Counted from the first letter of the stretch, positions 21,985 to 32,000 are shown. The stretch: 32,000 bases of DNA from Flavobacteriaceae bacterium (GCA_965224465.1 OZ245049.1:2520001-2552000), one strand, 5' to 3'. The notes: generated from the sequence alone by a model not told the origin. Made by a program: numbers and translations.

Positions 21985-22003
21985 TATCCTAAATCAACTA
22001 CAT

Positions 22004-22038
22004 AAAAAAGCTGTTTAATATATTAAACAGCTTTTTTT
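22004..22038. terminator. Bidirectional intrinsic terminator at the core/accessory boundary
   Basis: Perfect 12-bp palindromic stem agctgtttaata/tattaaacagct, flanked by an A5 run and a T7 run. Confidence 0.7.
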
Positions 22039-22114
22039 AGTTTGAAAGTTTTTTTTGAAATATTGTAAAAGGAAGCTATAGGTATACCCTACATACAATT
22101 CCTTCTTAAAAATT

Positions 22115-22471
22115 TCAATCTTTTTTAATTAATAAGTAGTAATCATTTTCTAATTTCAGATATCCTTGATCATATACATAATAATATGTATTTCCCGTCT
22201 TGGTAATATAAAGAGATGTAAAGTAGTTAAAGATAAATCCTGCATCGAGCAACTTAATCTTAGGTACTTTTGTTTTCCCTACATGATTTAGTTCTGTCAA
22301 AATTTTATAATTTTTCCGCAATCTATTATTGATATTACGAATCATTTTTTTACTTTCAACATTGACTTTATTATTATAGGAATTCCTACAATAATCAGTA
22401 CAAAACTTTTTATCAACCCTACCTTGAATCGTTTCACTACATTCTAAACACACCTTATTCTCTGTCATCAT
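22115..22471 (-). CDS. Small Zn-ribbon protein of unknown function
   Basis: CxxC...CxxxC motif at the N-terminus (CLECSETIQGRVDKKFCTDYCR). The rest is unrecognised. Confidence 0.5.
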   Translation of the reverse strand: MMTENKVCLECSETIQGRVDKKFCTDYCRNSYNNKVNVESKKMIRNINNRLRKNYKILTELNHVGKTKVPKIKLLDAGFIFNYFTSLYITKTGNTYYYVYDQGYLKLENDYYLLIKKD

Positions 22472-22509
22472 AACTGGGGATCTCTAAATTCGAAATTTAA
22501 CTCTTATTT

Positions 22510-23061
22510 CTAATCTTCAGTAACACTACCCCAATTTTCACCAGATTTGATACGGTATAATTGCATTTCAGAAATACCGAATTGTTTGGCAATCATTTTC
22601 ATACGAGTCTTTCTGTTTGGATCATTAATTTTCCGTTTAATCAATTTTACTTTTGCCTCGGTCAATTTAGAATACTTTCTAACTTTTGAAGCTTTAATAA
22701 CTAAAGGATTGCTTTTTTGATGTTGAGCAACTTCTGGTCTTGTCAACCATTTCAAATTATCTGATGCATTGTTTACCTTGTCAAAATCCAAGTGCGTTAC
22801 ATATTTTTTATCCTCTGGATTTTCTAAAAATGCTTTTGCAATTGCTCTATGAACATAACAGGAAGTCCTTTTCCCTCCGTTCTTAGAAATCCAAAACATT
22901 TTATAACCACCTGTCAAGTTTGTCTTCACTAATGCAAATTCATCTTGATCCACTTTACGTGAACTCACGCGACCGTAATTTGAAACTTCAAACAACTCAT
23001 TCTCACTCCATAAGTCCTCTCTGTAAGGCTTCCAAACCTCGTTTTTAAAATCTATTATCAT
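22510..23061 (-). CDS. NUMOD4 + HNH_3 homing-endonuclease-like protein with C-terminal HTH
   Basis: NUMOD4 pattern (WKPY...FEVSNYGRVSS), HNH_3 pattern (VHRAIAKAFL...HLDFDKVNNASDNLKW) and a C-terminal HTH (IAKQFGISEMQLYRIKSGENW). ATG 23061 is preferred over the GTG at 23085. Confidence 0.75.
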   Translation of the reverse strand: MIIDFKNEVWKPYREDLWSENELFEVSNYGRVSSRKVDQDEFALVKTNLTGGYKMFWISKNGGKRTSCYVHRAIAKAFLENPEDKKYVTHLDFDKVNNASDNLKWLTRPEVAQHQKSNPLVIKASKVRKYSKLTEAKVKLIKRKINDPNRKTRMKMIAKQFGISEMQLYRIKSGENWGSVTED

Positions 23062-23452
23062 ATAACCATTATTTAAGTACGTCACAAATATACAACTAAA
23101 TTACTCGAATTCAAACGACTACAACCATTTACAAACAGTTACATACGTAAGTAAGTATTTAACAACCAACTAAGCCCTTGCTATTGCTGTAATTTTGTAC
23201 TGTTGAATTGAATTAATAATTGTTGATTTCTTAACAAACACCTTATGAGTTCTTTAAAAAACAGAATTAAGTTAAGTAAACAGCTTCTAAAAATCGACAA
23301 AATGAGAAAAACACCAGAAATATACGGAATTAAAGAATACATACATTCTCACCTATAAATCATTATTAAAGCATCTAAACAACATAGAAAAATAATCTAA
23401 ATAATAACCAAAGACTTTACATATTAAAGCAACATTTAAAAATAAAAAAATC

Positions 23453-23788
23453 ATGAGCACACTTAGAAACAAAGTACAGTTAATCGGAAACTTAGGAAAC
23501 GACCCAGAAATTATCACTTTAGAAAGCGGTAAAAAATTAGCGAAATTTTCTTTAGCTACCAACGAAAGCTATAAAGATAGTGATGGACAAAAACAAACAA
23601 TTACAGATTGGCATAATATAATCGCTTGGGGAAAGACTACCGATATTATCGAAAAATATTTAACAAAAGGAAAAGAAGTTGCCGTAGAAGGAAAACTTAC
23701 CAATCGCTCTTACGAAACCAAAGAAGGAGAAAAACGATACATCACAGAAGTTGTAATTAATGAAGTTATGATGCTGGGGAGTAAATAA
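23453..23788 (+). CDS. ssb: Single-stranded DNA-binding protein, short form (OB fold only)
   Basis: NKVQLIGNLGNDPE...TDWHNIIAWGK...VAVEGKLTNRSYE...RYITEVV is the canonical SSB OB fold. The protein is 111 aa and ends without a Gly-rich linker or acidic tip. Confidence 0.9.
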   Translation: MSTLRNKVQLIGNLGNDPEIITLESGKKLAKFSLATNESYKDSDGQKQTITDWHNIIAWGKTTDIIEKYLTKGKEVAVEGKLTNRSYETKEGEKRYITEVVINEVMMLGSK

Positions 23789-23810
23789 TGAATACAATAC
23801 TTCTTGAAAC

Positions 23811-23849
23811 TATACTTCGTCAGCAAATAGCATTTGCTGACGAAGTATA
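23811..23849. terminator. Perfect 18-bp stem / 3-nt loop hairpin after ssb
   Basis: tatacttcgtcagcaaat-agc-atttgctgacgaagtata. There is no clear U-tract on either strand, so terminator function is uncertain. Confidence 0.45.
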
Positions 23850-23991
23850 GATACGCATTGGGTTTCACTTTCTGGACACCAAGTCCCGCATAGTTGGCTA
23901 CTTCTCCTTTGTCAAGGTAGCACCAAAGAACACCTTCAGCAGCTATAGTGTTTTTTTTACAACATAAGTATTACAGAAGGCAATATAAGTA

Positions 23992-26361
23992 TCAATTATT
24001 ACTTTTAATACGGTCTTGTTCGTCTTTAGATGAATTTGACCGCTCTTTTTCTTTACTATATTTTGAACCAAAATTGTAAGAAACTTGTAAATACACATTT
24101 TGACGCGACCAATCACTAATTATGTCAGCATCTATATTATTATATTTAATACTCCCCTTAAACTTTCTTTTTAGAATTTCTCCTACCCCTAAATTTACTT
24201 TCATTTTATCATTCATAAACTTTTTACTCAACCCAAAACTTATTCCCGCCAACCAATCATGCTCTATAAGCCCCTGTAAACCTCCTGTTGAATAATATCC
24301 TGTCATTTCAGAATTAATACCCCAAGGAAATTTGTATTCTAAATTTGTATACCAAGTCAAACTCCATTTATCGATATCAAAATTTGGCTGTAGATTTTGA
24401 GATTTGTACCTGTTATAGTTAACTATAAACCCAGTATAACCTTCTAGTTCACTCACGAAATTTATGGGGGCAAACGCTTTAAAATTCCAATTTTCTCTTT
24501 TTGAAATATTAATTGTCGAACGTGATGTTTGGGCTGAAACATTATTTTGTGTAACAATTTCAAATAAAGCATCTGACGTATCTTTGTAACCAATTGAGAA
24601 AAAAGGTTGATCATTATATGTCATATTAAATTGAAAACTATTTGTAAATGCAGGTTTTAAATTCGGGTTTCCTTCTTCAAAAGTATAGGGGTCATAATAA
24701 TAAACAAAGGAATTTAAAGAGCTATACGAAGGTCTTTGTATACGATAACTATACGACAGGTTTACTCCAAAAGTTTTAGATAACTTTCTTCCAATATTAG
24801 CACTAGGAAAAAATTTTGATATCTTACGTTTTTTAACCTCAGATGTATTTGTAGACTTTCCTATCGTCTCACTTTCTTCCCATCTCAGTCCTCCAGAAAA
24901 AGACCATTCATCCATAATAGAAGTGAATTTAGTATATATAGCACTAATATCTTCGTCAATTAAAAAACGATTGCTTTGAGTATCATTTAGGATAAAATTA
25001 CCACTGTTATTTTGCACAAACGACTGTAGGTTACTATCTGTATTTATTTTCGAGAATTTCGAACCAAACATCCAATTAAAATTATCGTTAAAAGTATGTT
25101 TGTAATCCAATTTATAAGTTAAAATATGATATGCACCATTTTGTAAATAACGTTGATTGCTATAATCTATAGTGCTTAACTCTCTTTTAAATAAATCATT
25201 TGTATTATCGTTGTTATAATCTATATAATTTACATCAAAAACAACTTTCTCTTTACCGTTATCAAACTTATAAAAAGGATTTATATTAAAAGTTACTCTC
25301 TCTTTATCAAAATCACTTTCTGTAAATAATGAATTAGATGAACTATCTCCTAATATTATAGTGCTATTAGAAGTTACCCTGTCCGAGTCTGTAAAAATCC
25401 TACTTGTACTTACTCCTACACTATGTTCATTGTTAATATAATAATCTAACGCTCCACTCAACCTAAATGTTTTAGGGTGAAAAGGTGAAATTGAAGCTTG
25501 ACTATACAAGAGTTCATTAACTTTACGATTGATAAATAAATCTTCTCTCCATGCAGATTTTTTATATCCTGTACTTACCTGCCAATTTAATTTGTTTTTA
25601 TAACTCGCAATAGAAAAGCTCGTTCCATATTCAAATTCATTGTCATACCCCGTATTTAGTTTAATGCTTCCGTTTGTACCAAGTTTTACATTTTTTTTTA
25701 AAATGATATTAATAATTGCACCTGAACCTTCGGCGTCAAACTCAGCACCAGGCTGTTGAATAAGCTCTACTTTAGCAATATTATCTGCAGGTAAATCGCG
25801 TAACAACGTATCTGTATCCATATAATTTGTCGTCTTCCCGTTAATGAGAATTCTTACACCTTGTTGCCCCGCGTAACTAATATTCCCATTTGTAACAATA
25901 ATTCCTGGTATTTTTTTCATAACATCCTGTAAGTTAGAGTTCATCATTTCAGAGTTTTCAAGGTTAATGATCAACTTTTCTGCTGTTTGGCGAATTACAG
26001 GCCTCGTACTTTTTATAACAACTTCATTTAAAGTTTGAGACTCTTCCTTTAAGGTAAAATTTAATTTAATTTCCTTATTTTTTTCGGATAACATGAAAGG
26101 CTTCGATTTCTGAATTTCAAAACCAAGTACTGACACTACTATTCGATAAGATCCATCTGAAATATTTTCAAAGGCATAATACCCAATATCATTACTACTT
26201 GTTCCTTTGACTACTTTATTGTTTAATTTATACAATACAATATTAGAAAAAGGTAATGATTCACCCGATTGTTCAATGATAACTCCAGAAATCCTATTTT
26301 GAGAAAAAACAAAATTCATATTGAATATAAAACATATAATAATTATTAATTTAATTTTCAT
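23992..26361 (-). CDS. Outer-membrane beta-barrel protein with carboxypeptidase-regulatory-like and plug-like N-terminal domains (TonB-dependent-receptor-like)
   Basis: Signal peptide (MKIKLIIIICFIFNMNFVFSQ), a CarbopepD_reg-like domain (ISGVIIE...GYYAFENISDGSYRIVVSVLGFE), a plug-like segment (DVMKKIPGIIV...GVRILINGK), then a long region of beta-strand periodicity. It is the last gene of the operon. Confidence 0.8.
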   Translation of the reverse strand: MKIKLIIIICFIFNMNFVFSQNRISGVIIEQSGESLPFSNIVLYKLNNKVVKGTSSNDIGYYAFENISDGSYRIVVSVLGFEIQKSKPFMLSEKNKEIKLNFTLKEESQTLNEVVIKSTRPVIRQTAEKLIINLENSEMMNSNLQDVMKKIPGIIVTNGNISYAGQQGVRILINGKTTNYMDTDTLLRDLPADNIAKVELIQQPGAEFDAEGSGAIINIILKKNVKLGTNGSIKLNTGYDNEFEYGTSFSIASYKNKLNWQVSTGYKKSAWREDLFINRKVNELLYSQASISPFHPKTFRLSGALDYYINNEHSVGVSTSRIFTDSDRVTSNSTIILGDSSSNSLFTESDFDKERVTFNINPFYKFDNGKEKVVFDVNYIDYNNDNTNDLFKRELSTIDYSNQRYLQNGAYHILTYKLDYKHTFNDNFNWMFGSKFSKINTDSNLQSFVQNNSGNFILNDTQSNRFLIDEDISAIYTKFTSIMDEWSFSGGLRWEESETIGKSTNTSEVKKRKISKFFPSANIGRKLSKTFGVNLSYSYRIQRPSYSSLNSFVYYYDPYTFEEGNPNLKPAFTNSFQFNMTYNDQPFFSIGYKDTSDALFEIVTQNNVSAQTSRSTINISKRENWNFKAFAPINFVSELEGYTGFIVNYNRYKSQNLQPNFDIDKWSLTWYTNLEYKFPWGINSEMTGYYSTGGLQGLIEHDWLAGISFGLSKKFMNDKMKVNLGVGEILKRKFKGSIKYNNIDADIISDWSRQNVYLQVSYNFGSKYSKEKERSNSSKDEQDRIKSNN

Positions 26362-26385
26362 AGAATAGCTTTTTGAATATAAATA

Positions 26386-26715
26386 TTATTTAATTTGTTC
26401 AATTTCAGACTTAACTTTTTCAATTTCGTCATCATATCCTATATTACTTCTATAGATTAATTTAAAATGACTTTCTCTAAGGTATATTTTTAAAAAATAT
26501 CTCTCATTATTTTTTATATACTTTATTTTCCCATCTCCCAATTCATCAAAATCAGAAAAATTGGTTTTTAAAATTTTATGGATTTTAATAAAATCTTCTT
26601 TATTTATTGTAACAGAATAGATTGTCTCATATTTTGATTGCATTAAAACTTCATTTTTTGAGCTACAACTAGCAAAAAAAAAGAGGATACTACTGCAAAT
26701 AATTCTTATATTCAT
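26386..26715 (-). CDS. Small lipoprotein of unknown function (possible immunity or accessory factor)
   Basis: Signal peptide plus lipobox (ILFFFASCSS). 109 aa. 5 nt separate it from the ABC gene stop and 24 nt from the OM barrel start. Confidence 0.55.
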   Translation of the reverse strand: MNIRIICSSILFFFASCSSKNEVLMQSKYETIYSVTINKEDFIKIHKILKTNFSDFDELGDGKIKYIKNNERYFLKIYLRESHFKLIYRSNIGYDDEIEKVKSEIEQIK

Positions 26716-26720
26716 AATAT

Positions 26721-28910
26721 TTAAATATTTAATTGATTTTTCACTAATGTATAATAATGTTGTTTCTTATTTATTAATTCCAAGTGGGTTCCTCTTTCTA
26801 CAACAGTACCATTAGATAAAACAACTATTTGATCTGCATTTCGAACAGTACTTAATCTATGTGCTATTATTACAACCGTTTTGTCTTCAAATAATTTCTG
26901 TAAATTAGAATGTACTTCCATTTCATTAGTTGAATCAAGCGCTGAAGTAGCTTCATCAAGAAATATGTATTTTGGATTTTTATAAATAGCTCTTGCAATT
27001 AAGATCCGCTGTCTTTGCCCCCCCGACAAACCATTTCCTCCAGACCCAATCTTAGTAAGTTCCTTTAAAGGTAATGAATTAATAAAACTAAACAAATTAA
27101 CTGCTTTTAAGGCTTTAAATAATTTATCTTTATCAATTTTAATTTCACTCATCACGATGTTTCTTTGTATTGTATCATTAAAAATATAACCATCCTGCAT
27201 AACAACACCTGAATTTTCACGAATACTTTTAGCAGATAATTTTTTTATATCATCAGACCCGTAAAATATCTCACCGTCTATTGTATCGAAAAATTTAAGA
27301 AGTAATTTCATTAAAGTGGTTTTCCCACTACCACTATGCCCTACGATTGCAGTGATTTTTCCTTTTGGTATATTAATACTTACATTTTCTAAAATAAAAT
27401 TTTCAGACAATTGATTATATTTGAAATTTAGATTAATCAAATCTATATCTACTGGTCCATAGCTTGGTTCTAGCGTATTATTGATATTAAAATCCTCTTC
27501 GTCCTGAGAATACACCTCACTTAACCTGTCAAAGCTTAAGAGTGCATCTTGTTGTGACCTAAAGAAATCCAAAAGTTGATGTACGGGAGAATTCATTTGC
27601 CCAATAATAAAAGAAACACTGAGAAGCGCCCCCAAAGTCATGTGATTATTAATCACATAATAAGCTGCAAGAAAAGTAACTAAAATATTTTTCAATTGAT
27701 TAAAAAAAACAAAACCGACAGACTGAAACTGTTCGATTTTTAATGACATAATATTAACTTTTAAAAGCTTATTCTGAATATCAATCCATTCATTTTTTTT
27801 ATACTCTTCGTACTGATTCAATTTCATTTCTTTAATCCCATTATAAAACTCAAATATTGCTTCTTGACTTTCCGACCGAGCTTTGAATAGTTTGTAGTCA
27901 ACTAACTCTCTCTTTTTCAACCAAAAGACTGACCAAAATATAGAAACCATTGTTAAAACCGAGAATAACAAAAATAAATAAAAATCATAATATAACAAAA
28001 TCATTGAATACAACATCAAAGTAATAAAGGAAAAAAAAGTTAAAATACTTTCAGATGTTAAAAATTGTTCAATCTTGACATTATCTTGTATACGCTGATT
28101 AAAATCGCCTGAGTTTTTTGTGTCGAAAAAACTAATTGGTAAACTTAAAATTTTGTCTAGGTATGAATAGATGATGTTAACACTAAGTTTAGTCCCAATT
28201 ATTAAAGTAAACCAGTTTCTCAAAATATTTATACACATTATACCTATAAAAACAAATAACTGAGCTAAAACTATCAATCCTAATAAATTAATATTTTTTT
28301 TATTAACACCTCTATCAATTAATGCTTCAGTTAAAAAAGGTAAAGTTATATTTAAAACACTTCCCATAAAGAATAACCCAAAGAGTAAAATTATTTTTTT
28401 CTTAAAAGGACTAAGAAGCTCAATAATTGGTCTAATTCTTCTAACAAAACTATTTTTATTTTTATTTTCAGAAAACTTAAGAGTTGGACTCAAAAAAAGT
28501 GCTACTCCATAATTATCATCATTTAACCATAAATTACAGAAATCTTTCCTTGATAATTTAATTTTTCCATGTGCAGGATCTACAATTAGAAATTCTGTTT
28601 TATTTTTATTAATCGCTTCTAGAACCAAAAAATGATTCATATTCCAATATAAAATACATGGTTCCGTAAAATTTTCAATCAATTGCTCTATATTTAATTT
28701 TAAACAATGTGTTTTAAAACCAATTTTTTTAGCCGCATGTATTATCCCCAACATTGAGACCCCATCCTTTCCGATTTGACACAGTTCTCTCAAACTGTGT
28801 AATCTATAATTATTTCCGAAATAGTTCGTGACCATACTCAATGATGCAGGGCCACAATCCATTTGATCATGTTGTCTTACCAAGGTTATATTTTTTTTTC
28901 TTTTGAGCAT
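26721..28910 (-). CDS. Peptidase-C39-domain ABC transporter (double-glycine leader cleaving bacteriocin/lantibiotic exporter, LanT/SunT type)
   Basis: N-terminal C39 motifs with an intact catalytic Cys (QHDQMDCGPASL) and a His region (NHFLVLEA...VDPAHG). Six-TM domain. Walker A GHSGSGKTT, signature LSGGQRQR, Walker B IFLDEATSALD, H-loop IIAHRLS. Confidence 0.93.
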   Translation of the reverse strand: MLKRKKNITLVRQHDQMDCGPASLSMVTNYFGNNYRLHSLRELCQIGKDGVSMLGIIHAAKKIGFKTHCLKLNIEQLIENFTEPCILYWNMNHFLVLEAINKNKTEFLIVDPAHGKIKLSRKDFCNLWLNDDNYGVALFLSPTLKFSENKNKNSFVRRIRPIIELLSPFKKKIILLFGLFFMGSVLNITLPFLTEALIDRGVNKKNINLLGLIVLAQLFVFIGIMCINILRNWFTLIIGTKLSVNIIYSYLDKILSLPISFFDTKNSGDFNQRIQDNVKIEQFLTSESILTFFSFITLMLYSMILLYYDFYLFLLFSVLTMVSIFWSVFWLKKRELVDYKLFKARSESQEAIFEFYNGIKEMKLNQYEEYKKNEWIDIQNKLLKVNIMSLKIEQFQSVGFVFFNQLKNILVTFLAAYYVINNHMTLGALLSVSFIIGQMNSPVHQLLDFFRSQQDALLSFDRLSEVYSQDEEDFNINNTLEPSYGPVDIDLINLNFKYNQLSENFILENVSINIPKGKITAIVGHSGSGKTTLMKLLLKFFDTIDGEIFYGSDDIKKLSAKSIRENSGVVMQDGYIFNDTIQRNIVMSEIKIDKDKLFKALKAVNLFSFINSLPLKELTKIGSGGNGLSGGQRQRILIARAIYKNPKYIFLDEATSALDSTNEMEVHSNLQKLFEDKTVVIIAHRLSTVRNADQIVVLSNGTVVERGTHLELINKKQHYYTLVKNQLNI

Positions 28911-28912
28911 AA

Positions 28913-29407
28913 TTAAATTTGATCAAATTCACTAAAACAATATTCGTTAAAGCTATTTACAATTTGTTTATAAAAAATCGTTTTTTTTCGTATAATTAAA
29001 CACGGAATATCCTTTTTATATAACTCATAATTGGTCAGAATAACATGATCTTCGAAATTTGCTTTACAAATTCTATTCCACAAATTAACTCTAGTTTTCC
29101 CTCTTGTTTTTCTGAAATTTATAGAATTTTCCAATTGATTGTGAGTTTGTAAAAAAATCGCATCGTAATAACCAACAAGCTCTTTCATAAAAATGATTAT
29201 TGTTCTTATAACTTTATAATCTTTTGGTGGATTTTTAATTCCACATTTCAATGATAACTCTAAAATATTTTTGGTTCCCCCACATAAAGTATCATAACTA
29301 ACATCTGATTTACTAAGAATAAAGCAATATTTTATTCCGCTATCCGACACAAAATAGTAACTATTTAATCCTTGCTTTTTTATTTTATAAAATTTTGAAA
29401 TCTCCAT
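28913..29407 (-). CDS. Hypothetical 164-aa protein, translationally coupled within the RiPP operon
   Basis: The ATG at 29407 overlaps the upstream gene by 23 nt, and the stop lies 2 nt before the ABC start. I recognise no motif. There is no signal peptide or TM segment. Confidence 0.5.
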   Translation of the reverse strand: MEISKFYKIKKQGLNSYYFVSDSGIKYCFILSKSDVSYDTLCGGTKNILELSLKCGIKNPPKDYKVIRTIIIFMKELVGYYDAIFLQTHNQLENSINFRKTRGKTRVNLWNRICKANFEDHVILTNYELYKKDIPCLIIRKKTIFYKQIVNSFNEYCFSEFDQI

Positions 29408-30692
29408 TTTCGATTAATTCTAATTCATTAACAATAATACCTTTGTTGTTTATTAAAACCCTTAAAAAGTACATAATTACATCTTTCGGGAAATTATTAA
29501 ATTCTTTCAAAATGGATTTAACACTAACTTCTTTAGAATTATTAATCATTTTAATTATACCTATTAATTCAGGGAAATATTTAAAAGAAAGCCTCGTACC
29601 ACGAACGTACAGAATTAACCTATCCTCAACTTTCTCAACTTTTATCATATACAAATTATTTGATGTGATTATTTTACTTTCTAAATTAGGGAAATAATCT
29701 TTAGTACTATCCATTTTACCAAAATAACTCAAAGGTATACTCTGCCACCCCCCATTGCTTGTCAAACATTTTTTGTATTCATTATAAGTTTGTTTTAAAA
29801 AATCTTGTAGTGGTGATTTTAAAGCTTTCTCACTAACATTTAGTGTATTTATAAAATCAAAAAAAGTGTTTTCATTGTTGATATAATCTTTTTGACATGG
29901 AATTATACTTTGATCATTTTTAATAAATAAGTTCTTAATAGTATCTATCATTAATTTTGAGTAGTTATACTTTGTGGGGTTGTTAAACCAAAGGGTTACA
30001 CCAATAGAAAAGCTTTCTGAACATCCAACATGATGCTTATCCCATGGCATAGAATACAAATCCCCCCTACCAAATTCATGTTTTTCAGCATATTCCAACA
30101 ATGGTTCAATATTTCTATTATTTGAAAGCCCCTTACCAACTTTACTATATGTTTTTTCATCCCAAACATACATTTGTTTTTTTCCTGGCCCTAAATGGTA
30201 ATGTAGTACATTTTCTCCTCTATTATCTCTATGAATCCCAAGAGGGGTCCATCCATAATTACCTATGAAAGTAGTAAGTTCTATTCCCCAAGGAGGTATC
30301 CCAATAATATCAAATAATGGTTGTACTGTTTTCAATATATATCCCGCCAAAATTTCCGAATGTTTTTCTCCATAATTAGTTATTATACCAAAATTTTCAC
30401 CGAATACTCGTTCACAATATGATTGTATACCTTCATCGCTACTTAATTCATTTTTCTCAATTAATTTAATGATTTCTGAGTCACTCATTTCTATGCCGTC
30501 AACATATAACCTAAATCCATTACTTATATCTAGTCTATTTATTCTAGATTTAAGCATTTCAAGAACACCTTCATTTAATACATTCACTAAATCATTCGAC
30601 ATGCACCCCTCATAAACTTGTGTCTTTGTAAATGAAAAATTTTTCGCCATAAAAGACTTCCACCAATCGTGATTAAAGTTATTTGTTTTCAT
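29385..30692 (-). CDS. JmjC/cupin-4 (ribosomal-oxygenase-like) Fe(II)/2-oxoglutarate-dependent oxygenase
   Basis: HxD...H facial-triad arrangement in a cupin context: WTPLGIHRDNRGENVLHYHLGPGKKQMYVW, then GRGDLYSMPWDKHHVGCSESFSIGVTLWF. By recollection this parallels E. coli YcfD/RoxA: GVGPHLDQYDVFIIQGTGRRRWRVG ... PGDILYIPPGFPHEGYALENAMNYSVGFR. The N-terminal (DWWKSF..) and C-terminal extensions are also ROX-like. No alignment was computed. Confidence 0.6.
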   Translation of the reverse strand: MKTNNFNHDWWKSFMAKNFSFTKTQVYEGCMSNDLVNVLNEGVLEMLKSRINRLDISNGFRLYVDGIEMSDSEIIKLIEKNELSSDEGIQSYCERVFGENFGIITNYGEKHSEILAGYILKTVQPLFDIIGIPPWGIELTTFIGNYGWTPLGIHRDNRGENVLHYHLGPGKKQMYVWDEKTYSKVGKGLSNNRNIEPLLEYAEKHEFGRGDLYSMPWDKHHVGCSESFSIGVTLWFNNPTKYNYSKLMIDTIKNLFIKNDQSIIPCQKDYINNENTFFDFINTLNVSEKALKSPLQDFLKQTYNEYKKCLTSNGGWQSIPLSYFGKMDSTKDYFPNLESKIITSNNLYMIKVEKVEDRLILYVRGTRLSFKYFPELIGIIKMINNSKEVSVKSILKEFNNFPKDVIMYFLRVLINNKGIIVNELELIENGDFKIL

Positions 30693-31022
30693 TATTCCTC
30701 TAGTTTTGTTACTATCTCTAATAAAATACTTGTTCTATAAAAAAAATTAAATCTGTAATTTCTAACTGTGTATTTTTTTATTCTTTCTTAAAATCCTAAT
30801 TTTGTAATCTACCCAATAAAGTATCATTGTGGTAAGTGGGTAGTTTCATATAAAAAACGTCTATATTACTAACTATTGTTACTAAATCAACAAATCATAT
30901 CATTAAAACGTTTCACTAATATGTTTTGAGTGGAACGTGTAAATATTTTGGCTTTCAAATATGCATAAACACTGAATTAAGTAAAATGCTGTTATTTACT
31001 AATCTCTAAAATATTATTTATT

Positions 31023-31059
31023 GAAAAATGTAAGGATGTTTTACAGAAAACACCCTTAC
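31023..31059 (-). terminator. Intrinsic terminator/attenuator immediately downstream of the precursor peptide genes
   Basis: The minus-strand RNA would fold GUAAGGGUGUUUU-CUGU-AAAACAUCCUUAC (13-bp stem with one G-U pair), followed by AUUUUUC. It begins 21 nt after the stop of the second peptide gene. Confidence 0.5.
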
Positions 31060-31079
31060 GAGTAAATTAGAACATTATT

Positions 31080-31208
31080 CTAGCTTTCTACTTTCACTTC
31101 CTTTTTCTTTTCTTTCTTTGGTCTCTCATGCCCCCCTAATAAGGTTTGACTTTCAAGTGCCGATAATTCCTCAATATCAAGAAATTTTTTTGGATTTAAT
31201 TTTTTCAT
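31080..31208 (-). CDS. RiPP precursor peptide 2 (42 aa), double-glycine leader
   Basis: Hand-translated and below the ORF-track size cutoff: MKKLNPKKFLDIEELSALESQTLLGG|HERPKKEKKKEVKVES. It is a paralogue of the adjacent peptide. The leader fits the LSxxELxxIxGG-type consensus. Confidence 0.75.
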   Translation of the reverse strand: MKKLNPKKFLDIEELSALESQTLLGGHERPKKEKKKEVKVES

Positions 31209-31232
31209 AATAAAAATTTTAATTTGTAAATT

Positions 31233-31358
31233 TTACTTTGTTTCAACTTTTTTCTCTTTCTTTTTATCTGGTCTTTCGTGCCCTCCCTTTAAGGTTTGGC
31301 TTTCTAAAGCTGATAATTCTTGAGTATCTAAGAATTTTTCTGGTTTTGAATTTTTCAT
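31233..31358 (-). CDS. RiPP precursor peptide 1 (41 aa), double-glycine leader
   Basis: Hand-translated: MKNSKPEKFLDTQELSALESQTLKGG|HERPDKKKEKKVETK. Across the 16 shared codons ELSALESQTL and GGHERP the two genes differ at 7 positions, all synonymous. Confidence 0.75.
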   Translation of the reverse strand: MKNSKPEKFLDTQELSALESQTLKGGHERPDKKKEKKVETK

Positions 31359-31478
31359 ATTAAAAATATAATTAAGTTAAACCTACTCATTGCTGGCTTT
31401 TCGGTTTCCGCCAATTTTTACTGCAGTAGTATTGTTTAACAAATAAATAATATTGTTATATAAATTCCAAAAATGTTT

Positions 31479-31523
31479 TCTTGAAATTTATAAATACAAA
31501 CATGATATTCATAAATTTCAAGA
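31479..31523. promoter_or_regulatory. Perfect 13-bp inverted repeat (candidate operator) in the divergent intergenic region
   Basis: tcttgaaatttat-N19-ataaatttcaaga, between the precursor genes (minus) and the LanB gene (plus). Confidence 0.35.
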
Positions 31524-31583
31524 ATAACAATAACACTCTAACAACTTGCTTGTTAGCTTATTACATCTTTGAATTAAAACAAC

Positions 31584-31591
31584 TATATTTA
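31584..31591 (+). promoter_or_regulatory. Candidate -7 box (TATATTTA) upstream of the LanB gene
   Basis: Near match to TAnnTTTG, 21 nt before the ATG at 31613. It lies inside the 12-mer ACTATATTTACG that is also found at 3974-3985. Confidence 0.3.
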
Positions 31592-31612
31592 CGGAGAACA
31601 TTTTATAAAACC

Positions 31613-32000
31613 ATGCGGAAACAACGGAACCCCTATCAATTTTTAAGAACTTATTGCTTAAGAACCCCTCTTTTAGCCCTGAATATCTTAGATGATGTAT
31701 TTGGAAATAGACGGATTGATAAAAAAGCCTTAAGAACCTACTGGAATGATTCAGTAATTAAAGAAGCATTATTTTTAGCCTCTGCGGATTTACACCAACA
31801 ACTAAATCTGCTGTTTTTGGACCGCATAGAAAATACAAAAAAAGAGGAACGGCTGGTGCATAGTTTTTTAAAATACCTCCTTAGAGCTTCCACAAGGTGT
31901 ACTCCTTTTGGATTATTTGCGGGGATATCTATTGGGACCTTTGATACACATACAGCCATTCACATAGCTACCATAAATAACCATCGTAGAATTACGCAAT
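31613..32000 (+). CDS. Lantibiotic dehydratase (LanB family), N-terminal 129 codons; continues beyond the window
   Basis: Absent from the ORF track (no stop in the window). Translation: MRKQRNPYQFLRTYCLRTPLLALN...VIKEALFLASADLHQQL...FLKYLLRASTRCTPFGLFAGISIGTF. The LRTPLL and R.(S)TR.TPFGLF..(I)S.G motifs are the hallmark N-terminus of LanB/NisB-type dehydratases (NisB has YLRSTPFGLFSETSIG). An in-frame ATG at 31502 is an alternative start. Confidence 0.85.
   Translation, partial: MRKQRNPYQFLRTYCLRTPLLALNILDDVFGNRRIDKKALRTYWNDSVIKEALFLASADLHQQLNLLFLDRIENTKKEERLVHSFLKYLLRASTRCTPFGLFAGISIGTFDTHTAIHIATINNHRRITQ

Follow-up and report, generated by a model that had tools for sequence, protein, structure and literature searches.

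The analysed stretch of DNA, hereafter the window, comprises 32,000 nucleotides from a Flavobacteriaceae bacterium (GCA_965224465.1 OZ245049.1:2520001-2552000). Its last quarter contains two small peptide genes and, after a terminator-like hairpin, five further genes on the minus strand, while the 5' part of a LanB-type dehydratase gene diverges on the plus strand and runs off the window (Table 1). The first-pass annotation described these genes, their boundaries and their gaps, and all of it is confirmed. Within the block of five genes, the oxygenase gene overlaps the next gene by 23 nt, and the following gaps are 2, 5 and 24 nt; the gap between peptide 2 and the oxygenase gene is 387 nt, and the intergenic region shared by the LanB gene and the precursors is 254 nt.

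Table 1. Features of the region, in positions of the window
Feature	Position	Strand	Size	Reading
LanB-type dehydratase, N-terminal part	31613-32000	+	129 aa	Read as the edge of a separate, adjacent class I lanthipeptide cluster
5' hairpin element	31376-31418	-		Small conserved element in the 5' leader of precursor gene 1
Precursor peptide 1	31233-31358	-	41 aa	MKNSKPEKFLDTQELSALESQTLKGG / HERPDKKKEKKVETK (leader / core)
Precursor peptide 2	31080-31208	-	42 aa	MKKLNPKKFLDIEELSALESQTLLGG / HERPKKEKKKEVKVES (leader / core)
Terminator-like hairpin	31030-31059	-		Probably an attenuator setting the precursor-to-enzyme ratio
Oxygenase	29385-30692	-	435 aa	Predicted ROX/JmjC-type Fe(II)/2-oxoglutarate oxygenase with a C-terminal winged-helix (RRE-like) domain
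Orphan protein	28913-29407	-	164 aa	Clade-specific accessory of unknown function
ABC transporter	26721-28910	-	729 aa	C39-peptidase type (PCAT), proposed to cleave the leader after GG and export the product
Predicted lipoprotein	26386-26715	-	109 aa	Clade-specific accessory; signal peptide plus lipobox (...FFFASC)
Outer-membrane protein	23992-26361	-	789 aa	TonB-dependent-receptor-like; proposed outer-membrane passage or re-uptake of the peptide

Precursors, enzymes and their conservation

The two peptides are not chance ORFs. A leader HMM built only from other genomes finds them at E 4e-12 (peptide 1) and 1e-11 (peptide 2) and finds nothing else in the window. Both leaders end in ...ELSALESQTL(K/L)GG with upstream hydrophobic positions, and the cores lack Cys and have one Ser or Thr each. 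Peptide 2 additionally gives a weak hit to PF14406 Bacteroid_pep (E 1.6e-3). The hairpin after the precursor genes has a 13-bp stem followed by a T-run; one such structure was found against 0.2 expected in shuffled sequences.

The element upstream of precursor gene 1 has a 4-bp stem, the loop GGAAACCGAAAA, then GAGUAGG, and ends 17 nt before the ATG. Its 35-nt hairpin matches the Rfam model RF02914 (DUF805b) end to end, although the score of 33.2 bits (E 8e-8) is just below the gathering score of 35.6; the copy in the related locus L007 scores 44.4 bits, above this threshold. Our own model of the element, R1, scores 50.3 bits in the window. The same element lies 12-27 nt upstream of GG-leader peptide genes in 10 other loci, and the stem covaries, with compensatory changes, across 15 distinct copies. 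The link between this orphan motif and GG-leader precursor genes was observed here and was not found in the literature.

The 435-aa protein has no Pfam or NCBIfam hit at E<=1, including Cupin_4 and JmjC, and a profile search of PDB sequences finds no oxygenase; a few database entries nevertheless name homologues "JmjC domain-containing" or "cupin". The assignment to the oxygenases, proposed by the first-pass annotation, is borne out by the predicted structure. The AF2 model (pLDDT 88.7, pTM 0.86) has YcfD, NO66 and MINA53 as its top Foldseek matches (E 2e-14 to 1e-11, with about 2e-14 and probability 1.00 at the top) over about 430 alignment columns (range 420-480). The residues H154, D156 and H221, which form an HxD...H iron-binding triad, are invariant in 22 homologues that are 28-71% identical. 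K172, located 18 residues after H154, is also invariant, which makes it a candidate, from its position in the sequence alone, for the basic residue binding the C5 carboxylate of 2OG. In the C-terminal domain, the model has strands 341-371 followed by helices 374-415, while nine such C-terminal domains gave no PqqD-type Pfam match; an RRE-like role rests on topology and on the literature, where JmjC-RRE fusions are reported (PMC12710340). The family includes 727 clusters at 50% identity with E<=1e-10.

The 729-aa protein matches Peptidase_C39 (E 4e-35), ABC_membrane and ABC_tran in Pfam, as well as the NCBIfam bacteriocin cleavage/export ABC families. Its C39 domain is catalytically complete as judged from the sequence: the Q/C/H/D motifs are visible (QHDQMDCGPA, NHFLVL and VDPA). 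The 789-aa protein matches CarbopepD_reg_2 (E 2.5e-13), Plug (E 3.8e-5; 24.6 bits against a cut-off of 23.9) and OMP_b-brl_3 (E 3e-81). None of the five operon genes has an HlyD-type domain, which is usual in Gram-negative systems of this kind. The 109-aa protein has no Pfam or NCBIfam hit, and homologues occur in 10 of 78 loci. The 164-aa protein has no Pfam, NCBIfam or PDB hits, its single-sequence AF2 model (pLDDT 40) is unusable, and its homologues occur only in the closest clade and in L020, another related locus (10 of 78 loci).

We examined 78 genomes with homologues of this oxygenase. A double-glycine-leader peptide lies next to it in 61, a C39 ABC exporter in 67, and an OMP_b-brl_3 barrel in 46, the latter usually directly flanking the peptide or oxygenase genes. 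The 81 unique cores average 24 aa and are low-complexity repeats (K/E-rich, polyQ, (VK)n, (VR)n, (VT)n and His/Asp-rich) dominated by V, K, Q and E; aromatic residues are almost absent (F 1.1%, Y 0.4%, W 0.1%), and Cys occurs in 8 of 81. Oxygenase clades follow the core type: there is one polyQ clade, while the His/Asp loci and many VT/VR loci carry two paralogues that fall in different clades. The number of paralogues correlates weakly with the number of dominant polar residue types (rho 0.28).

The neighbouring LanB gene

The LanB fragment (31613-31999) matches Lant_dehydr_N at E 9e-20. The first-pass annotation inferred that LanB, the oxygenase, the exporter and the peptides form one pathway that is not known to match any characterised RiPP class. 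This interpretation is partly supported. A RiPP-type operon, an oxygenase of the ROX/JmjC type, a complete C39 domain and Cys-free GG-leader precursors are supported, and the peptide, oxygenase, ABC and outer-membrane protein genes are conserved together in other genomes; the inclusion of LanB is not supported.

A true LanB is present in only 2 of 78 related loci (L007 and L029), and 2 more (L033 and L034) have an N-domain-only LanB-like protein. In both L007 and L029, LanB has its own LanA-type peptides with Cys/Ser/Thr cores and a different, lanthipeptide-type leader. In L029 they lie directly after LanB, and the LanA passes NCBIfam NF038153; in L007 two peptides on the LanB strand give sub-threshold hits to this model. 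There is no NF038153 hit for the window peptides or for relatives with the oxygenase-type leader. L029 also has its own LanC, whereas L007 shows none within 6 kb. L007 is the only relative with the same divergent LanB arrangement, and it therefore shows the situation listed beforehand as refuting a single pathway, i.e., a separate Cys-containing LanA. For the window itself, the conclusion that LanB most likely belongs to a separate cluster is drawn by analogy with these two loci.

Proposed pathway and alternatives

We believe that positions 23992-31418 are a self-contained RiPP-type operon, and the following scheme is proposed with moderate confidence. The two precursor genes, preceded by the conserved 5' hairpin, encode a double-glycine leader (FLDxxELSALESQTLxGG) joined to a short Lys/Glu-rich core, and are followed by a leaky terminator. 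The oxygenase, the only recognisable modifying enzyme of the operon, would bind the leader through its C-terminal winged-helix domain and oxidise side chains of the core, most likely by repeated hydroxylation, with Lys as the likeliest target here. The ABC transporter would cut after GG and export the product, and the TonB-receptor-like barrel, with help from the lipoprotein, would take it across the outer membrane or back up; the 164-aa protein is presumed to be an accessory. In this view, LanB belongs to a neighbouring class I lanthipeptide cluster with its own Cys-containing substrates beyond the window.

The gene content, the oxygenase fold (from the AF2 model), the metal triad, the intact C39 domain, the conserved synteny and the family-wide link between oxygenase lineage and core composition are considered established by this analysis. 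The hydroxylation chemistry and the 2OG-dependent activity itself, which are assumed from the fold, the target residue, leader binding by the winged helix, the export route in the absence of an HlyD-type adaptor, the direction of transport through the outer-membrane protein, and the independence of LanB in this particular genome are inferred. No single residue type is common to all cores, so the target cannot be read from the sequences. The link between clades and core types fits residue-specific enzymes acting on the repeats, and there is a precedent: BipG is a JmjC ornithine hydroxylase in biphenomycin biosynthesis (PMC12707348), and bacterial JmjC homologues in RiPP-like contexts have been noted (PMC12710340).

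An unlikely alternative is that the oxygenase acts on the peptides in another way, for example by cross-linking or macrocyclisation, desaturation, or oxidative cleavage or decarboxylation. 2OG oxygenases catalyse many reaction types, a 2OG-dependent macrocyclisation in RiPPs has been reported (Xia et al., JACS 2025, cited in PMC12710340) and is described as an aromatic-to-aliphatic cross-link (PMC13185096), and both window cores begin with His. However, the closest structural relatives are all protein hydroxylases acting on Arg, His or Asn, the cores almost lack aromatic residues, and the N-terminal His is not conserved in the nearest relatives. Homopolymeric cores such as polyQ or (VK)n suit an iterative single-residue modification better than one defined cross-link.

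The hybrid pathway, in which LanB would dehydrate Ser/Thr and the oxygenase would hydroxylate other residues of the same Cys-free (HERP) peptides to give linear dehydro- and hydroxy-peptides, seems very doubtful. It is favoured by the shared divergent intergenic region, by the same layout in L007, by the single Ser or Thr in each window core, and by LanB-family genes near the cassette in 5 of 79 loci (the window included) from three lineages; by our rough estimate, made without computation, this is more than chance would give, so that occasional cross-talk is not excluded. On the other hand, 74 of 78 related loci have no LanB-family gene within 10 kb, the L007 core NEDIKVEKKKEKKAAIQ has no Ser or Thr, and the LanB N-terminus is only 43% identical between the window and the split LanB of L007, against 65% for the oxygenase, in addition to the separate LanA peptides and the LanC considered above.

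Equally unlikely is the export of unmodified peptides as class II-type bacteriocins or pheromones, with the oxygenase only loosely linked and acting on a ribosomal or other protein like YcfD: C39 ABC systems often export unmodified GG-leader peptides and the fold is that of the ribosomal oxygenases, but the oxygenase sits directly beside GG-leader peptides in 61 of 78 loci across Bacteroidota and Betaproteobacteria, tandem paralogues lie inside the same operons, oxygenase clades track core composition, the gene overlaps the next gene of the exporter operon, and low-complexity cores such as polyQ or KEKEKE are unlike known unmodified bacteriocins.

It is tempting to propose a broader hypothesis, which we consider possible though somewhat less likely than not: the operon would be a member of an undescribed RiPP class of Bacteroidota and some Betaproteobacteria, in which ribosomal-oxygenase-type enzymes, often as residue-specific paralogue sets, repeatedly hydroxylate homopolymer-like cores (Lys/Glu-rich, polyGln, (Val-Lys)n, (Val-Arg)n, (Val-Thr)n and His/Asp-rich) whose products pass through a C39 ABC transporter and a TonB-receptor-like barrel. 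The His/Asp members would give beta-hydroxy-His/Asp metal chelators, i.e., ribosomal siderophore-like peptides, and expression would be governed by the DUF805b element.

If the oxygenase really modifies these peptides, it would define a RiPP family whose main maturase is a ribosomal-oxygenase-type hydroxylase, linking a fold known from ribosome and chromatin modification to natural-product biosynthesis. The family is widespread, has no Pfam model and is apparently unstudied, as no paper describing it was found; the conserved system is more unusual than the first-pass annotation could see. Its low-complexity cores and matched paralogues would offer a natural panel for learning how JmjC hydroxylases choose Lys, Gln, His, Asp, Arg or Thr, and the His/Asp subfamily next to a TonB-type receptor suggests ribosomally made metal chelators. 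A likely biological context is also provided for the orphan motif DUF805b. For genome mining, the case of LanB warns that adjacent RiPP clusters can be mistaken for hybrid pathways.

Relation to known systems

Compared with the ribosomal oxygenases YcfD/RoxA, NO66 and MINA53, the predicted enzyme has the same three-part architecture (a JmjC double-stranded beta-helix, a helical middle domain and a C-terminal winged helix) and the metal triad. There is no detectable sequence similarity, however, with 10-14% identity in the structural alignments; the genomic context is a peptide-export operon rather than a solitary gene, and the presumed substrate is a leader-bearing small peptide rather than a ribosomal protein.

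BipG (PMC12707348), among other RiPP hydroxylases such as the 2OG-HExxH enzymes, is likewise a JmjC-type Fe/2OG enzyme acting on a ribosomal precursor peptide. It is one tailoring step among MNIO, rSAM and arginase-type enzymes in a Gram-positive pathway that makes a small biaryl macrocycle, while here the oxygenase (or its paralogues) is the only recognisable modifying enzyme, the cores are low-complexity repeats, and the proposed export is by a C39 ABC with a TonB-receptor-like barrel. JMJD6-type hydroxylation of unstructured lysine-rich protein regions resembles the chemistry proposed for the K/E-rich cores, since a JmjC hydroxylase acts repeatedly on Lys in charged low-complexity sequence; JMJD6 is a eukaryotic nuclear enzyme with no leader-peptide logic, and the resemblance is by analogy only.

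The Bacteroidota class I lanthipeptide clusters (pinensin type) share GG-type leaders cleaved by a C39 ABC transporter, and a LanB (split into N and C proteins in L007) lies next door, with a full LanB-LanA-LanC set beside the cassette in L029. The window peptides lack Cys and do not match the lanthipeptide leader model, and the oxygenase cassette is an independent module. In the peptidase-containing ABC transporters for double-glycine peptides (PCAT1, ComA, LagD type), as in the operon, a C39 domain with the catalytic Gln, Cys, His and Asp motifs is followed by a six-helix membrane domain and a nucleotide-binding domain, and the substrates end their leader in GG. The operon contains no HlyD-type adaptor or TolC partner; the conserved neighbour is instead a CarboxypepD_reg/Plug/OMP_b-brl_3 barrel.

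Gene arrangement and the predicted oxygenase

The ORF map agrees exactly with that described in the first-pass annotation, so the observation is confirmed. Two small minus-strand ORFs are followed by a gap of 387 nt and then by five tightly packed genes, whose boundaries are an overlap of 23 nt and gaps of 2, 5 and 24 nt. The terminator-like hairpin lies just after the second peptide gene, and one such hairpin was found against 0.2 expected in shuffled sequences. A decayed third precursor was looked for in the 387-nt gap with the leader-peptide HMM and was not found. Promoter scans were uninformative: sigma-70-type sites occurred at chance level, and the Bacteroidota -7 motif TAnnTTTG has no minus-strand match in the intergenic regions. 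The cluster has a lower G+C content (0.24-0.31 in 22000-32000) than the housekeeping part of the window (0.30-0.39 in 1-22000, which includes LeuRS, TyrRS and an aldehyde dehydrogenase) and is bordered by HNH_3 endonuclease, Zn-ribbon-like and SSB genes; this suggests an acquired island.

Coordinates of the features discussed (L-numbers are the fetched genomic loci of oxygenase homologues)
Locus	Position	Strand	Feature
Window	22115-22471	-	Zn-ribbon-like ORF, 118 aa
Window	22510-23085	-	HNH_3 endonuclease
Window	23453-23788	+	SSB gene
Window	23992-26361	-	789 aa; Pfam CarbopepD_reg_2, Plug and OMP_b-brl_3
Window	26386-26715	-	109 aa; lipoprotein-type N-terminus ending in ...FFFASC
Window	26721-28910	-	729 aa; Pfam Peptidase_C39, ABC_membrane and ABC_tran
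Window	28913-29407	-	164 aa
Window	29385-30692	-	435 aa; predicted oxygenase
Window	31059-31030	-	Terminator-like hairpin; 13-bp stem and T-run
Window	31080-31208	-	Precursor peptide 2, 42 aa
Window	31233-31358	-	Precursor peptide 1, 41 aa
Window	31376-31418 (35-nt match at 31380-31414)	-	DUF805b-like element
Window	from 31613, running off the window	+	LanB fragment; Pfam Lant_dehydr_N, E 9e-20
L007	8836-8880		DUF805b-like element
L042	9264-9306		DUF805b-like element
L046	301-344		DUF805b-like element
L047	5118/5442/5745		DUF805b-like elements
L053	9584/11667		DUF805b-like elements
L039	9302		DUF805b-like element
L050	9362		DUF805b-like element
L067	9628		DUF805b-like element
L057	11929		DUF805b-like element
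L021	4566		DUF805b-like element
L001	6571-8954		ThiF-family, LuxR/GerE and weakly FeeM-like genes
L006; L007	9647-9799; 9667-9822		Extra precursor with a KCKCKCKC core
L033; L034; L034	11728-14454; 14933-17578; 665-1319		Clusters with Lant_dehydr_N-only proteins, including the three tandem peptides of L034
L007	982-2661 and 3738-5432		TPR-AraC/HTH_18 regulators

The C39 domain carries the usual Gln, Cys, His and Asp motifs (QHDQMDCGPA, NHFLVL, VDPA). The 435-aa protein, in contrast, has no hit in Pfam or NCBIfam at E<=1, and a profile of 22 homologues finds no oxygenase among the PDB sequences; hence its earlier assignment as an oxygenase could not be confirmed by sequence search. It is confirmed at the level of the predicted structure. 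The AlphaFold2 model built on the 22-sequence alignment is confident (mean pLDDT 88.7, pTM 0.86), and a Foldseek search of the PDB returns the ribosomal oxygenases YcfD (4csw, 4ccl, 4lit), NO66 and MINA53 as the best matches (E 2e-14 to 1e-11, probability 1.00, about 420-480 aligned columns), followed by YxbC/1vrb and FIH. H154, D156 and H221 (an HxD...H triad) and K172 are invariant in homologues down to 28% identity. The C-terminal 90 residues of the model (the domain spans residues about 335-425) form strands followed by three helices, which is the winged-helix domain of ROX enzymes and the topology of RiPP recognition elements; no PqqD-type sequence match was found, so that a leader-binding role is an inference, supported by a report of JmjC-RRE fusions and of bacterial JmjC homologues in RiPP-like contexts (PMC12710340).

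For the 164-aa protein, a homologue search found only the protein itself, a single-sequence model was unusable (pLDDT 40), and profile searches of PDB and Pfam gave nothing useful, apart from a weak hit of one member to DUF6169.

Conservation of the cassette and its precursor peptides

A homologue search with the oxygenase found 114 proteins, nearly all from Bacteroidota, and a full HMMER search of 1.84 billion cluster representatives found 1225 at E<=1e-3, 727 at E<=1e-10 and 293 at E<=1e-30. We fetched 78 genomic loci with 10-kb flanks, which do not include the source genome (it is not among the GTDB representatives), and searched their ORFs with the proteins of the window and with a leader-peptide HMM. 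A C39 ABC transporter was found in 67 of the 78 loci, an OMP_b-brl_3 protein (usually directly flanking the cassette) in 46, and a GG-leader peptide with the motif FL-x4-LSPLE-x5-GG in 61, on the oxygenase strand beside the oxygenase. The 164-aa ORF was found in 10 loci (the closest clade plus L020), as was the 109-aa lipoprotein (the closest clade plus a weak match in L011). The nearest oxygenases (65-71% identity) are from Aquimarina, Flagellimonas-like and Tenacibaculum genomes; the family also reaches Chromobacterium, Vitreoscilla, Massilia and a Coxiellaceae MAG.

The leader HMM, which was built only from other genomes, picks out the two peptides of the window (E 4e-12 and 1e-11) and nothing else in it. 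Their leader contains FLDxxELSALE, and after the GG their cores are HERPDKKKEKKVETK and HERPKKEKKKEVKVES. Across the family the cores are strikingly low-complexity: K/E-rich (for example DVKVEKKKEKKQE, KEKEKEKEKEK and KKKKKKKKKKK), polyQ with up to 18 Q in a row, (VK)n, (VR)n or (VVR)n, (VT)n, V/Q repeats, His/Asp-rich (for example HHHDHD and HDHDHDHDH) and a few KCKCKCKC peptides. Examples are L042 for polyQ, L023 for (VK)n and L045, with two oxygenase paralogues, for His/Asp. In L006 and L007 the latter is one extra peptide with the same leader among the K/E-rich precursors, i.e., a Cys-containing variant within the oxygenase-type family. The 81 unique cores average 24 aa, with V 15%, K 14%, Q 12% and E 9%; aromatic residues are nearly absent, and Cys occurs in 8 of 81. 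Betaproteobacterial members (L048, L052, L054, L055 and L059 of Chromobacterium, L060 of Vitreoscilla, and L041) carry two or three oxygenase paralogues; where a precursor was found (not in L060), it is a GG-leader peptide with a His/Asp/Glu-rich core, for example EVQHEDHDHVHKAQ. L048, L054 and L059 also encode a second peptide type ending in ...CDSGYVRCDKGFSG or a close variant.

A neighbour-joining tree of 94 oxygenases shows that enzyme clades follow core type. The polyQ-associated enzymes form one clade; His/Asp loci carry two (sometimes three) paralogues that fall into separate sister clades; many VT/VR loci likewise carry two deeply split paralogues; and the K-rich enzymes form their own groups. 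The number of paralogues correlates weakly with the number of dominant polar residue types (rho 0.28, p 0.03, not corrected for phylogeny). This pattern is what residue-specific enzymes acting on the repeats would produce, and it is hard to reconcile with an oxygenase unrelated to the peptides. We considered that all cores might share one target residue but rejected this, since no residue is common to the polyQ, K/E, VT, VR and H/D cores.

The 35-nt element upstream of precursor 1 lies 21 nt from its ATG and matches the orphan Rfam motif DUF805b at 33.2 bits against a gathering score of 35.6; L007 has a copy above the threshold in the same position. A covariance model built from seven copies found 17 copies in 1.42 Mb, all on the peptide strand, and 15 of the 16 copies outside the window lie 12-27 nt upstream of a GG-leader peptide gene, including each of the three tandem polyQ precursors in L047 and two GG peptides of other types. 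The element has a 4-bp stem, the conserved loop GGAAnCCGAAAA and then GAGUAGG; the stem is paired in 98% of cells and shows compensatory changes (CG to UA or AU). This suggests a 5' leader or regulatory element of RiPP precursor genes in many Bacteroidota loci.

Other candidates for regulation were seen in the relatives. Just upstream of the peptide genes in 13-16 loci of several clades (L001-L006, L008, L009, L013, L015-L017 and L025, with LuxR alone in L014) lie three genes, a ThiF-family protein (about 250 aa), a divergently oriented LuxR/GerE regulator (about 260 aa) and a 228-aa protein with a weak FeeM (N-acyl amino acid synthase) match, which could be a quorum-sensing-like control unit. 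The window has none of them, and LanB occupies that position instead. Large TPR-AraC/HTH_18 regulators of about 560 aa recur near the cassettes of several clades (L007, with similar proteins in L012, L019, L039, L049, L068 and L074) and may be the usual transcriptional regulators of these clusters.

The neighbouring LanB gene

A search of all loci with the full LanB proteins of L007 and L029 finds a true LanB in only those two loci. In L029 (Chitinophaga) LanB is immediately followed by a LanA that passes NCBIfam NF038153 ("class I lanthipeptide") and has a Cys/Ser/Thr core; then come an S41 peptidase, a histidine kinase, a LytTR regulator, LanC and a LuxR-type regulator, and only then the three oxygenase-type peptides and three oxygenase genes. 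L007 (Aquimarina) is the only relative with the same divergent LanB-precursor layout as the window. Its LanB is split into Lant_dehydr_N (759 aa) and Lant_dehydr_C (292 aa), followed by TPR-AraC regulators, and on the same strand lie two peptides with Cys/Ser/Thr-containing cores, ...LSLDKLQVTKLDNPIAIKGG/RPDTVIDNILSNLNLCARKEANMQ and ...LSLEKLQVAKLNNPDAIRGG/ESNTVKESLLSRLRLCALQ (the slash separates leader and core). Both give sub-threshold hits to the same lanthipeptide leader model, while none of the oxygenase-type peptides hits it. The LanB N-terminus of the window is 43% identical to that of L007, against 65% for the oxygenase.

The first-pass annotation had placed LanB in one pathway with the oxygenase and had named, as a condition refuting this, a separate conventional Cys-containing LanA that is the real LanB substrate; in the closest analogue this condition is met. 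We conclude that LanB most likely marks a neighbouring lanthipeptide cluster. The conclusion is by analogy, since exact-protein look-ups with the oxygenase, its identical database copy (P0001) and the ABC transporter gave no record leading beyond position 32000, and a homologue search with the 129-aa LanB fragment returned only short fragments, giving neither the LanB length nor its context. Besides, LanB-family genes near the cassette in 5 of 79 loci are, by our rough and not computed estimate, more than chance would give, so that clustering of RiPP loci in islands, or occasional cross-talk, is possible. In two Cytophagales/Chitinophaga loci with paired oxygenases, L033 and L034, the LanB-like proteins of about 900 aa have only the Lant_dehydr_N domain and no elimination domain; L033 also has a DUF6734 protein and an acyl-carrier-like ORF, and L034 an acyl-carrier-like ORF and three tandem 62-70-aa peptides ending in ...CRFGNSSIDTxDDDLLF. 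These clusters look more complex and may be genuine hybrids. The earlier interpretation is partly supported: in our reading the oxygenase, peptides and exporter form one pathway, and LanB probably does not belong to it.

Inferred mechanism and relation to known systems

The gene order, the conserved neighbourhood and the correspondence between enzyme clades and core types are results of the analysis, whereas the mechanism, including catalysis, leader binding, cleavage and transport, is inferred. We presume that the precursors are transcribed strongly and that read-through of the hairpin terminator would express the operon from the oxygenase to the OMP gene. The oxygenase would dock on the leader through its winged-helix domain and oxidise side chains of the core. 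Its nearest structural relatives hydroxylate Arg, His or Asn in proteins, and BipG is a JmjC ornithine hydroxylase in a RiPP pathway (PMC12707348); by these precedents repeated hydroxylation is most likely, with Lys the obvious candidate in the K/E-rich cores of the window. The C39 domain would then cut after GG, and the ABC transporter would export the product. No HlyD adaptor is present; the conserved partner is a TonB-receptor-like barrel, which may export the product or take it back up. For the His/Asp subfamily, hydroxy-His and hydroxy-Asp would be metal ligands and a TonB-type receptor would fit a metallophore, although this point is speculation.

We found no description of this cassette in the literature, although most subscription-journal papers were outside the searches and we cannot be certain that none exists; the conserved system appears to be an uncharacterised RiPP family with unusual substrates. 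The 2OG-dependent RiPP macrocyclisation of Xia et al. (JACS 2025) is described by a citing paper as an aromatic-to-aliphatic cross-link, and the near absence of aromatic residues in the cores considered here argues against that chemistry. The system works like a RiPP pathway that uses a PCAT exporter, while its enzyme is, by predicted fold, a structural member of the ROX/JmjC oxygenases but falls outside the curated sequence families.
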